Source: a virus
Strand: one strand, 5' to 3'
IMG/VR virus record: IMGVR_UViG_3300005096_000137
Location: 1 to 64,000 of that record
DNA length: 64,000 nucleotides
Shown here: positions 52,228 to 61,527 of the stretch, one piece after another
Layout: each line of letters opens with the position of its first letter
Numbering within the stretch: the stretch's first letter is position 1
Translations under genes and position numbers: made by a program
The notes under the pieces: generated by a model
Told to the model about the DNA's origin: nothing
Databases searched by the model: none
Seen by the model: only the letters and a program-made list of their open reading frames with translations

Positions 52228-52617
52228 ATGAACCACGACGACATGAATTTCCAAGGGTTTATTGCCGAGAGACTGACTGGGTTCCTGAGTAATCTACCGG
52301 TACCTATTCATCCAGATGCAGAATTACTGAGTGTGGGGAAGAACATCCCAGTTGATCCACGACTCGGCAAGAAGCACTTGCTCACTTACTACATCGCCCC
52401 AATGATTGAAGACCTAGTGGCACCAATTCGTGAGAAGAACGTTCCGGTTAAATTCGTGGATTTGCCGCCCCTTGAAGACGGGAGAACTGAAGTTCCGCTT
52501 GACACCTCACTGCCAATTCGGTACTGTGTAAAGTATGTTCCAGGGGAGCCCTTTGACACAGTGATTCATGTGCTTGAACTCAACGTAGTGTACCTGTACG
52601 CTAGGTGTGGAAGGTAG
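52228..52617 (+). CDS. Hypothetical protein
   Basis: Weak similarity to 53332 (MI.DL..P.RY). Confidence 0.6.
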   Translation: MNHDDMNFQGFIAERLTGFLSNLPVPIHPDAELLSVGKNIPVDPRLGKKHLLTYYIAPMIEDLVAPIREKNVPVKFVDLPPLEDGRTEVPLDTSLPIRYCVKYVPGEPFDTVIHVLELNVVYLYARCGR

Positions 52618-52621
52618 TCAT

Positions 52622-52708
52622 GGAAGGTAGGCAGATATTGGTTTGCTGCCCCTGTTTTGAAAACAGTACGTCGTAAAGGCGGTGCGAGTTCGATTCCCGC
52701 ACCTTCCG
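52622..52708 (+). tRNA. tRNA-Ser(TGA)
   Basis: Long variable arm, G73, loop TT-TGA-AA. Confidence 0.88.
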
Positions 52709-52709
52709 C

Positions 52710-52776
52710 TGTCGCTTACCAGTGGTAAGGGACTTACAAAGGCTTTCGCTGAGCCAGCCTGGTCAAATCAGCGATA
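52710..52776 (+). ncRNA. tRNA-like structured unit
   Basis: TGTCGCT/AGCGATA closing stem, internal hairpins, degenerate T loop. Confidence 0.35.
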
Positions 52777-52777
52777 C

Positions 52778-52860
52778 GAGAGGGAGGTAGATGTTGGCTT
52801 TGCTACACCTGTCCGTTAGACAGGGGCTTCGGTCTGTGGGTTCGATTCCCACCCCTTTCG
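52778..52860 (+). tRNA. Ser-type tRNA body with GTT anticodon
   Basis: Long variable arm, G73, D arm like flanking tRNA-Ser; loop CC-GTT-AG. Confidence 0.75.
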
Positions 52861-52865
52861 CTTTG

Positions 52866-52953
52866 GGAAGATAGTCAGATATTGGTTGGCTGTACCTGCT
52901 TGGAAAGCAGGCGGCGTTAATTCGCCGTGTGGGTTCGATTCCTGCATCTTCCG
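52866..52953 (+). tRNA. tRNA-Ser(GGA)
   Basis: CCTGC-TT-GGA-AA-GCAGG, long variable arm. Confidence 0.92.
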
Positions 52954-52956
52954 CTC

Positions 52957-53309
52957 GGGCAGGTATCTTGGTGAGGGGAGATGATCACCCTGGGGGTTCG
53001 ATACCCTCTACTTGTTCAGTGAGTGGGTTATGGACGTGACAGGCCTGACCGCCTGGGAGGTAAGATTCCTCGCCCACTTGCATGGAGGACCCTACGAGGT
53101 GGGGACGTACATGGGTAAAAGTCCATTATGGAAGAACTACCCGCGTGCGTCGAGGTTCGTAACCTTACTCCTCCGCTTTAGTTTATCAACTGAACCGGCA
53201 CCGGATGGTGTTCCTTCGTGACTCACCCACGATAGGTTGGTAAGCGTTAATGGGCGGTCCCCGCGACAAGTCTATACGACAAACCGTCTGGGGTACGACT
53301 CCCCGCCCT
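52957..53309 (+). ncRNA. String of tRNA-like mini RNAs (52957-53018, 53021-53080, 53084-53175, 53183-53243, 53252-53309)
   Basis: Each has a closing stem; four have a 3' T-arm-like hairpin. Confidence 0.55.
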
Positions 53310-53331
53310 TTGATACAAATGAGGTGGATGA

Positions 53332-53751
53332 ATGTTTGATGACTGGATTGAATTCGACGAGCAGATGGTAGCTGATGTTGTGGCTGGTAATCTCAGACAA
53401 CGGCTTGCGTCTAACCCGCCCATTGCTATGATCCCTGACGTCCGAATGATACGTTGCTTCATCGAGGAGGAAATCAAGAATCCTAAACCTCTGTGGGAAC
53501 AGTACGATGGTCCGGTAAGCACTTATGATTTTGTTGATCCACCTTGTGCATGTCTGAGGACCATGATAGATGACCTGTGGCGGGTCATAATTGAGTCTTC
53601 ACCCGAGTCTCTGACATTTTACCGTCCAGAACCACAGCCCCAGCTAGATGGGGTTGTTGCAGGCGGGCGGATACCCGTGAGGTACACACATTTTGGCACT
53701 GATAAGTGGGGTTCCCACTGCATCGAAGTTTATCTGAAGGAGCCCAGTTAA
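53332..53751 (+). CDS. Hypothetical protein
   Basis: GAGG RBS; TAATG coupling. Confidence 0.6.
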   Translation: MFDDWIEFDEQMVADVVAGNLRQRLASNPPIAMIPDVRMIRCFIEEEIKNPKPLWEQYDGPVSTYDFVDPPCACLRTMIDDLWRVIIESSPESLTFYRPEPQPQLDGVVAGGRIPVRYTHFGTDKWGSHCIEVYLKEPS

Positions 53752-54251: not shown

Positions 54252-54562
54252 ACAAGCGACACTGGGAGGACCTCCCCGACAAGGGCCCACCAATCCAGGA
54301 TACCCACAGACCTAATAAGAAGCGGGGCGGTGGTAAGAAGCCCTTTGGTATCGAATGCCGGCACATTATCAGTGAGGACCACTGGTCACGGAAACAGGGT
54401 AAAACCGTTTGGAGCTGGTTTTCCAAATGGCAAGAATGGCACATGTATCAGAAATACAAATTGGAGAAAGACCGTGATCAAGCTCTCACCACCCTTACAA
54501 GAAAAGCTGGACAGGTTCAGGCACTGGGACGCTCGTACTGGGAGTACCGAAAAGCTTCTTAG
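54248..54562 (+). CDS. Basic hypothetical protein
   Basis: W...QKY..EKDRDQA..WEYRK. Confidence 0.65.
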   Translation: MNKRHWEDLPDKGPPIQDTHRPNKKRGGGKKPFGIECRHIISEDHWSRKQGKTVWSWFSKWQEWHMYQKYKLEKDRDQALTTLTRKAGQVQALGRSYWEYRKAS

Positions 54563-54743
54563 TGTGATAGCCCACACCGTTGTGGGGATTTGCTTGTTGA
54601 TAGCCTCCTGGGTGTTCTTCAGCTATGTGCCTTTGAGTCTCGTCTTTGCAGTCATCATACTTTCCACGTCCTTCACGGCACTAGCGATGTTGCTTTACTG
54701 GTCATTCACAACCGTGTTCAAGTCTAAGGATCCAGAATGGTAA
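54474..54743 (+). CDS. Two-TM membrane protein, paralog 1/3
   Basis: GGAG RBS and GTG 54474; F..W motif; WSFTTVF. Confidence 0.6.
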   Translation: MIKLSPPLQEKLDRFRHWDARTGSTEKLLSVIAHTVVGICLLIASWVFFSYVPLSLVFAVIILSTSFTALAMLLYWSFTTVFKSKDPEW

Positions 54744-60726: not shown

Positions 60727-60798
60727 GCGCGAGAGGCAACATGGTGTTGCGGCGGGCTTTCAATCCCGTTCTGGTGGGTTCGATCCCCATCTCGCGGT
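60727..60798 (+). tRNA. tRNA with 8-nt loop CTTTCAAT (Glu TTC or TCA register)
   Basis: GCGGG/CCCGT stem; 5-6 bp D stem; GTGGG-TTCGATC-CCCAT. Confidence 0.7.
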
Positions 60799-61454: not shown

Positions 61455-61527
61455 TCCTAGGTAGCTCAACTGGAAGAGCGGGTGGCTGTTAACCACCAGG
61501 TTGCAAGTTCGATCCTTGCTCTAGGAG
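61455..61527 (+). tRNA. tRNA-Asn(GTT)
   Basis: Canonical cloverleaf. Confidence 0.93.

Follow-up and report, generated by a model that had tools for sequence, protein, structure and literature searches.

Phage tRNAs that evade nucleases through changes in the anticodon loop are by now an established idea (PMC10264068, PMC11555353, PMC11464382), and three further groups of described tRNAs bear on the locus reported here. Allo-tRNAs are bacterial or phage-associated and carry mostly non-serine anticodons, and a subset with G3·U70 is a substrate of AlaRS in E. coli (PMC5389517). The nematode nev-tRNAs (Hamashima et al. 2012, PMC3333845; 2015, PMC4300185) are class II tRNAs with the anticodon of an amino acid that is otherwise served by class I tRNAs. 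A yeast tRNA-Ser that mistranslates at toxic levels can be made tolerable by second-site changes that lower its activity, U33G and A38G among them (PMC6827378).

The candidate tRNA that we describe, which has a class II body and an Asn anticodon, lies in the tRNA array of a large uncultured phage. Its record (IMGVR_UViG_3300005096_000137) is 148,427 bp in full, is complete according to CheckV and encodes a tape-measure protein, a primase and an SNF2 helicase; the window, that is, the whole stretch of DNA that was analysed, comprises its first 64 kb (64,000 nucleotides). No cultured relatives of the phage were found. The closest relatives of its helicase in the protein database (P0003–P0026) are 65–70% identical. 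Its relatives in prokaryote genomes (loci L106–L122) come almost entirely from Planctomycetota metagenome-assembled genomes (MAGs; Pirellulales, Thermoguttaceae, Planctomycetaceae and Aureliella), with three copies on a single 4.2-Mb Thermoguttaceae chromosome. The host phylum is therefore probably Planctomycetota. A curated cut-off for asnS is exceeded in four of five Planctomycetota genomes with related prophages, so that direct charging with Asn would be available in the probable hosts.

Judged by its gene content, the phage invests in RNA repair and surveillance, encoding RtcB (135839–137167) and a Ro60/TROVE protein (76205–77092). The synthetase families PF00587 (tRNA-synt_2b, SerRS-type) and PF00152 and the CCA-enzyme family PF01743 had no match in the phage, and on this basis we rejected a phage-encoded synthetase or CCA enzyme of these families serving the candidate. 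Asn codons make up 4.1% of all phage codons, an ordinary usage, and tRNA-Asn(GUU) is the tRNA most often retained among the relatives of the phage. Because a single GUU tRNA suffices for AAC and AAU, codon matching does not account for this retention, and with Asn usage unremarkable we also rejected a codon-supply rationale for a second GUU tRNA.

The candidate gene and its neighbourhood

The candidate is a real and complete gene for an 83-nt class II tRNA with a 7/5 cloverleaf (Table 1). Infernal with the Rfam model RF00005 placed it at 52778–52860 on the plus strand with 31.8 bits (cut-off 29, E = 1.6e-5) and zero non-standard pairs flagged, a score much like those of the flanking tRNA-Ser genes (34.6 and 31.9 bits), although it was reported only when the search region was small and was missed by larger filtered searches. 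Every pair in the acceptor, D, anticodon and T stems is standard (in the acceptor stem, 52778–52784 with 52853–52859: G-C, A-U, G·U, A-U, G-C, G-C, G-C), and the minimum-free-energy fold is this same cloverleaf. ARAGORN called a tRNA-Asn(gtt) at 52780–52861, in a register that begins 2 nt later and contains an A·C mismatch. We take the Rfam register to be the better of the two, because it yields a 7-bp acceptor stem (GAGAGGG/CCCTTTC) and is shared with the homologous tRNA-Ser genes; its coordinates match those of the initial annotation of this DNA.

That annotation had set the gene between two tRNA-Ser genes and had reported a normal tRNA-Asn further on, and all three neighbours were recovered. 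The candidate lies 68 nt downstream of tRNA-Ser(UGA), and only 4 nt separate it from the tRNA-Ser(GGA) that follows, in an array on a single strand. Beyond G73 there is no encoded CCA; CTTT comes next and is followed by tRNA-Ser(GGA) from 52866. No match to a promoter or terminator of the candidate's own was found on the plus strand.

Table 1 Positions of the candidate tRNA, its parts and the other tRNA genes discussed (coordinates of the window, or of the named locus)
Feature	Position	Strand	Basis or remark
Acceptor stem, 5′ strand GAGAGGG (positions 1–7)	52778–52784	+	Rfam alignment and sequence
G3	52780	+	Sequence
A8 G9, D arm and A26	52785–52807	+	Sequence, Rfam alignment
D stem GTAG	52787–52790	+	
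D loop, 12 nt, ATGTTGGCTTTG, with GG	52791–52802	+	Sequence, Rfam alignment
D stem CTAC	52803–52806	+	
A26	52807		
Anticodon arm, stem CCTGT/ACAGG	52808–52824	+	Sequence, ARAGORN, Rfam alignment
Anticodon loop CCGTTAG	52813–52819	+	
C33	52814		
Anticodon GTT	52815–52817		
G38	52819		
Variable region, 11 nt, GGC-UUCG-GUC hairpin plus U	52825–52835	+	Sequence
T arm GTGGG / TTCGATT / CCCAC	52836–52852	+	Sequence, Rfam alignment
Acceptor stem, 3′ strand CCCTTTC, plus G73	52853–52860	+	U70 at 52857, G73 at 52860
Flanking tRNA-Ser(UGA), 16-nt variable region	52622–52708	+	34.6 bits
Flanking tRNA-Ser(GGA), 18-nt variable region	52866–52953	+	31.9 bits
Canonical class I tRNA-Asn(GUU), U1-A72, G73, loop CUGUUAA	61455–61527	+	61.6 bits
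U33-replaced tRNA-Thr, L009	8194–8266		
U33-replaced tRNA-Thr, L017	8006–8078		
U33-replaced tRNA-Thr, L108	18761–18835 and 18848–18922		
C33 tRNA-Ile, L016	10283–10356		
C33 tRNA-Asn, L035	18436–18511		
C33 tRNA-Asn, L084	14158–14232		
C33 tRNA-Asn, L121	16991–17065		

Searches for orthologs returned no counterpart. A class II GUU tRNA was found neither in 53 related viral records, covered by loci anchored on the helicase and by tRNA searches of whole records, nor in 17 helicase-anchored genome loci; the closest relative in IMG/VR (71% helicase identity) has four tRNAs, none of them class II. Pattern scans of viruses gave only a mycobacteriophage tRNA-Tyr, a chance hit and ordinary tRNA-Ser, and the metagenome pattern scan gave only two ordinary tRNA-Ser. 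No relatives were found of the flanking proteins encoded at 52228–52617 and 53332–53751.

Several other RNAs surround the candidate. The spacer that separates it from tRNA-Ser(UGA) (52712–52776, plus strand) contains a conserved two-hairpin RNA with no match in Rfam, which keeps 84–91% identity between phages whose helicases share only about 50%. Copies were found in L086 (G003, about 54517–54594), L085 (G004, minus strand) and L093 (1262–1345), and in these relatives the RNA does not adjoin a tRNA; hairpin 1 has compensatory changes at four pairs and hairpin 2 (TCGCTGAGCCAGCCTGG..AATCAGCGA) is invariant. Downstream of tRNA-Ser(GGA), 52957–53310 (plus strand) holds several abutting tRNA-like units with acceptor-like closing stems and T arms, the anticodon arms of which are missing or odd (for example, one unit of 93 nt has an 8-nt loop, GTAAAAGT). 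These units were found by ARAGORN at relaxed settings only, and over the whole genome such settings give mostly false positives within genes. A match to the DUF3800-IX RNA of Rfam (53181–53249, plus strand; 45.6 bits, cut-off 36.8) lies at the end of this run. A further tRNA-like gene at 60727–60798 (plus strand), about 600 nt downstream of a thioredoxin-like gene, scores 28.3 bits in Rfam, slightly below the cut-off, and its anticodon loop of 8 nt (CTTTCAAT) includes the UGA anticodon TCA.

Frame, variable arm and identity signals

Comparison with phage tRNA-Ser genes supports a serine-type frame for the candidate in its acceptor stem, D arm, anticodon stem and G73. A serine body had been proposed at the outset, and each of the three stems indeed matches or nearly matches a phage tRNA-Ser: the acceptor stem with G73 is one base (A3 to G) from that of the L104 and L105 genes (GAAAGGG...CCCTTTCG, that is, GAAAGGG/CCCTTTC), the D stem GTAG/CTAC is identical in the tRNA-Ser(GCU) of L096, and the anticodon stem CCTGT/ACAGG is identical in the tRNA-Ser(GCU) of L097 and the tRNA-Ser(UGA) of L096. 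A metagenome scan with the D-loop, anticodon-stem and T-loop pattern, in which the anticodon loop was left free, recovered only L096 UGA and L097 GCU, ordinary tRNA-Ser, and a scan with the T arm and the 3′ acceptor strand recovered two phage tRNA-Ser genes, those of L104 and L105. A8 G9 and the D-loop type are common to all ten aligned phage class II tRNAs. Overall identity is similar in two directions, at 59–68% to tRNA-Ser genes and 70% to the tRNA-Tyr of cluster L mycobacteriophages. We rejected descent from tRNA-Tyr, because Tyr-like character is confined to the variable arm, whereas the three stems named above and G73 are of the serine type. Also rejected were a tRNA-Sec or allo-tRNA, on the basis of the 7/5 acceptor/T branch and an anticodon other than UCA, and a single-base sequencing error, given four differences between this loop and those of tRNA-Ser(GCU). 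As a separate observation, A8 replaces the usual U8 in 10 of the 10 aligned phage class II tRNAs (the candidate, eight tRNA-Ser and the tRNA-Tyr of phage LeBron; at 52629, 52785 and 52873 in the window), and U8 is present in the tRNA-Ser(GCU) and tRNA-Ser(UGA) of the Thermoguttaceae genome.

The variable arm had been called long, which holds for its kind but not for its length. It has 11 nt and a 3-bp stem, as opposed to 16 and 18 nt in the two neighbours and at least 15 nt (15–21) with 4–6 bp in all 13 tRNA-Ser compared, namely those of the phage and its relatives together with four from the Thermoguttaceae chromosome with related prophages. The arm resembles that of a tRNA-Tyr; the tRNA-Tyr arm of the same Thermoguttaceae genome has 13 nt and a 3-bp stem. 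The variable arm is the main serine determinant (PMC9976931) and its length is critical for SerRS (PMC6827378, PMC9976931), to the point that a yeast tRNA-Ser that loses a single variable-arm base pair by deletion has no detectable function (PMC6827378).

For comparison of identity signals we used the tables of Giegé and Eriani (PMC9976931), in which the asparagine set is defined in E. coli. From the SerRS set the candidate has G73, C72 (in G1-C72), R4-Y69 and G30-C40, whereas G2-C71 is replaced by A2-U71, C11-G24 by U11-A24, and a large variable region is missing; both replacements have parallels among phage tRNA-Ser, A2-U71 in L104 and L105 and U11-A24 in the tRNA-Ser(GCU) of L096. From the TyrRS set it has G34 and U35, with G73 and GUU instead of A73 and the anticodon GUA, and G73 is an antideterminant for TyrRS and LeuRS (PMC9976931). 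From the AlaRS set it has G3·U70 (52780 G with 52857 T), with G73, A2-U71 and A4-U69 in place of A73, G2-C71 and G4-C69. The initial annotation had overlooked both G3·U70 and A2-U71. Among 81 unique tRNAs of the phage and its relatives, G3·U70 is found in two, the candidate and a true tRNA-Ala; it confers alanine acceptance on tRNA-Tyr, a class II tRNA (PMC9976931), and on long-armed allo-tRNAs in E. coli (PMC5389517).

The AsnRS set (GUU plus G73) is present whole and is the only complete identity set in the candidate. Bacterial Asn identity consists of the anticodon and G73, and is transplantable, as shown in tRNA-Lys (PMC9976931). All of the 20-odd tRNA-Asn of the group have a class I shape (4–5-nt variable loop) and U1-A72; the candidate instead is class II with G1-C72. 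AsnRS is a class II enzyme that approaches the tRNA from the variable-region side, and an extra arm may clash with it; we know of no class II-shaped tRNA-Asn.

Charging by SerRS had been deduced from the body of the tRNA and from the disregard of SerRS for the anticodon, and the latter premise is sound (PMC9976931). The serine ancestry of the frame favours the deduction, but the 11-nt variable arm counts against it, G2-C71 and C11-G24 are replaced, if by pairs that some phage tRNA-Ser share, and we consider the step from the body to charging by SerRS a weak one. With a full asparagine set and the alanine pair G3·U70 also present, Ser is just one of three candidate amino acids: the signals of the candidate point at once to Asn, Ser and Ala, and the amino acid is unreadable from sequence.

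Anticodon loop and position 33

The loop CC-GTT-AG with C33 and the discriminator G73, both noted initially, are read directly from the DNA. The anticodon had further been described as one change from the GCT of tRNA-Ser. This is true of the GTT triplet but not of the 7-nt loop, which differs at four positions from TTGCTAA, the loop of all four tRNA-Ser(GCU) seen. By contrast, only one base (A38 to G) separates it from CCGTTAA, the loop of otherwise canonical tRNA-Asn in the related loci L035 (60 bits), L084 (63 bits) and L121. In two phage or prophage tRNA-Asn (L084, 14158–14232; L134, G054:C1:1507455-1507545) we also observed a T loop TCCGAGT, in which C replaces the universal U55.

Six of 80 unique ARAGORN tRNAs from the phage and related loci have C33 in place of U33: the candidate, the tRNA-Asn of L035 and L084, the tRNA-Thr(UGU) of L009 and L017 and the tRNA-Ile(UAU) of L016. 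The five besides the candidate score 49.6–69.4 bits in Rfam, and the tRNA-Thr of L009 and L017 have diverged from each other and both keep C33. Planctomycetota prophage loci add the CCGTTAA tRNA-Asn of L121 and, in L108, a C33 tRNA-Thr(UGU) and a G33 tRNA-Thr. Every U33-replaced tRNA found decodes ANN codons, although the enrichment of C33 among ANN decoders is not significant (6/48 versus 0/32, Fisher p = 0.076). Because CCGTTAA recurs in related tRNA-Asn, and C33 also occurs in related tRNA-Thr and tRNA-Ile, we read the C33 of the candidate as a habit of the clade, not as random damage or a sign of decay. Bacterial Tgt needs a U33-G34-U35 motif, so queuosine-34 should be absent from a tRNA with C33. 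According to a review of t6A, U36-A37-A38 is its universal determinant and C33 an anti-determinant for bacterial enzymes (PMC9654439); with C33 and G38, the candidate should therefore lack t6A37 as well.

G38 is unique to the candidate, which is also the only one of the 80 surveyed tRNAs with the C32-G38 combination. In a nearest-neighbour model this pair forms and leaves a loop of only 5 nt (−7.4 versus −3.9 kcal/mol, pair probability 0.98), a prediction that is a warning and not proof, as the same model over-pairs normal unmodified loops. In place of a standard U33 and an open 7-nt loop, the candidate thus has C33 and a loop that C32-G38 can close.

Possible roles and comparison with known systems

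Our preferred reading, to which we assign a probability of roughly 0.35, is that the candidate is a remodelled and under-modified second reader of Asn codons, most likely Asn-charged, in a phage that faces tRNA-targeting defence. The gene would be transcribed within the tRNA array and would have descended from a phage tRNA-Ser gene by rewriting of its identity signals; the class II shape and G73 would have been kept, the variable arm cut to a tRNA-Tyr-like 11 nt, pairs 2-71 and 3-70 changed, and the anticodon loop would have adopted the C32-C33-GUU-A37 form that is also used by ordinary tRNA-Asn of related phages. The product would be a structurally different reader of AAC and AAU, backing up the canonical tRNA-Asn at 61455. 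C33 and G38 should leave the loop without t6A37, and C33 should leave it without queuosine-34; such an under-modified loop on an unusual body should be poorly handled by host enzymes that recognise the normal tRNA-Asn loop or cut it. The amino acid carried would most likely be Asn, because GUU plus G73 is the sole full identity set and AsnRS is found in the probable hosts, with Ser and Ala as alternatives. C33 and the possible C32-G38 pair would make the tRNA a weak decoder. We lean towards function because the oddities fall at identity and loop positions and because the loop copies a variant that occurs in otherwise canonical tRNA-Asn of the clade.

This reading is weakened by the negative ortholog searches, by the predicted C32-G38 closure, by the possible clash of an extra arm with AsnRS and by the many other aberrant tRNA-like units in the phage, which could equally mean a graveyard of decaying copies. 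Nearly as probable, in our view, is that the candidate is a neutral relic of a class II tRNA, once tRNA-Ser(GCU) or similar, which is transcribed and processed with the array and has no selected function. Those aberrant units fit such an origin, as do the predicted C32-G38 closure and the status of the candidate as a singleton without an ortholog in any relative searched. Its slot would suit a lost GCU gene, as the phage has no tRNA-Ser(GCU) despite AGY accounting for 33% of its Ser codons, and the relatives G003, G004, L096 and L110 carry one; even as only a relic, the candidate would still mark this slot. However, its deviations lie at 2-71, 3-70, the variable arm, 32, 33, 35 and 38 with no stem pair broken, and the loop agrees at six of seven positions with a recurrent and apparently functional tRNA-Asn variant of the clade. 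All that the intact stems indicate is that a loss of function, if there was one, was recent, since every compensatory change could have come before it. The predicted 6-bp stem with a 5-nt loop, favoured by 3.5 kcal/mol, would also suit a non-decoding mimic, in which the acceptor/T half and class II shape serve processing and stability and the closed or odd loop keeps the RNA off the ribosome. The neighbourhood at 52957–53310 is full of tRNA-like units unable to decode, and the phage encodes Ro60 and RtcB, but we regard such a mimic as unlikely and are just as doubtful about its supposed role as a decoy, sponge or partner of a tRNA-binding factor (for example, an anticodon nuclease, a modification enzyme or Ro60). 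A decoy makes a poor strategy against an enzyme that turns over, and phages are known to respond with resistant replacement tRNAs (PMC10264068, PMC11464382); a perfect GUU-A37 in the Asn form of the clade would be needless for a pure mimic.

The remaining readings concern an amino acid other than Asn. The initial annotation had proposed that the tRNA is charged by SerRS and either mistranslates Asn codons as Ser or acts as a non-ribosomal Ser donor. The serine-type acceptor stem, D arm, anticodon stem, G73 and G30-C40 agree with this, SerRS would disregard the anticodon (PMC9976931), and C33 and G38 could be natural dampers. We nevertheless consider the proposal improbable, as the variable arm (11 nt and 3 bp) falls short of that in 13 of 13 tRNA-Ser, SerRS needs arm length (PMC6827378, PMC9976931), the phage has no SerRS-type enzyme (PF00587 unmatched) and strong mistranslation would hurt the phage itself at 4.1% Asn codons. 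Charging by AlaRS through G3·U70, which would make the candidate an Asn-to-Ala mistranslator or an Ala-tRNA-like species, seems more improbable still: the pair occurs otherwise only in genuine tRNA-Ala among the 81 unique tRNAs and can give alanine acceptance to tRNA-Tyr and long-armed allo-tRNAs (PMC9976931; PMC5389517), but the supporting A73, G2-C71 and G4-C69 are absent, and a single transition would turn the A3-U70 of tRNA-Ser into this pair, which could be there by chance. More broadly, it is doubtful that a class II tRNA from which SerRS, TyrRS and LeuRS determinants were removed reads Asn codons while bearing an amino acid other than Asn (Ala through G3·U70, or residual Ser). If this were true, it would amount to programmed low-level mistranslation of Asn codons during infection with C33 and G38 as built-in dampers, and to the first natural 7/5 class II missense tRNA in a virus.

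If functional, the candidate would represent a natural crossing of a long-armed tRNA to an amino acid served only by short-armed tRNAs, and its signals towards three synthetases allow the reading of tRNA identity to be tested in compact form. Alongside the C33 that recurs in tRNA-Asn, tRNA-Thr and tRNA-Ile of related Planctomycetota phages, it suggests that these phages routinely alter the near-universal U33, and the clade-wide change may reflect escape from t6A or queuosine modification or from loop-directed nucleases.

Among described systems, allo-tRNAs (Mukai et al. 2017) share with the candidate the long arm, a serine-type G73, mostly a non-serine anticodon and, in some of them, G3·U70, but their defining features are an acceptor/T branch of 8/4 or 9/3 and a D arm like that of tRNA-Sec, whereas the candidate has a 7/5 branch (an eighth acceptor pair would set A8 opposite C65) and a short variable arm. 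Like the candidate, nev-tRNAs are class II and carry the anticodon of an amino acid served by class I tRNAs; they are, however, eukaryotic, of leucine identity and conserved phylum-wide, whereas the candidate is a phage singleton with a serine-type frame and without leucine identity. The sole near-full-length match among 50,697 phage genomes is the tRNA-Tyr(GUA) of cluster L mycobacteriophages (LeBron gene 106; 79.5% over positions 6–77), which has a UUCG-capped short variable arm of the same design (GC-UUCG-GC) but differs from the candidate in having A73 (not G73), the loop CUGUAAA (not CCGUUAG) and an acceptor stem unrelated to the serine-type one of the candidate. Mistranslating tRNA-Ser variants, whether engineered or natural (for example, yeast tRNA-Ser(UGG), PMC6827378), likewise combine a serine frame with a non-serine anticodon, and their activity is damped by changes at U33 and A38, two positions also altered in the candidate; they retain the full variable arm that SerRS needs, and the candidate does not. 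Closest in working are the nuclease-evading phage tRNAs (van den Berg et al. 2023; T5 against Retron-Eco7 and against PARIS), with which the candidate shares its place in a phage tRNA array, a loop altered at 32, 33 and 38 with the anticodon kept, and accompanying RNA-repair genes. Those tRNAs preserve both the usual body and the amino-acid identity of the tRNA they stand in for, whereas the candidate has the body of the other tRNA class, U33 itself is replaced and its resistance is only putative; if escape worked through U33, nuclease evasion by phage tRNAs would reach a position that was thought untouchable.
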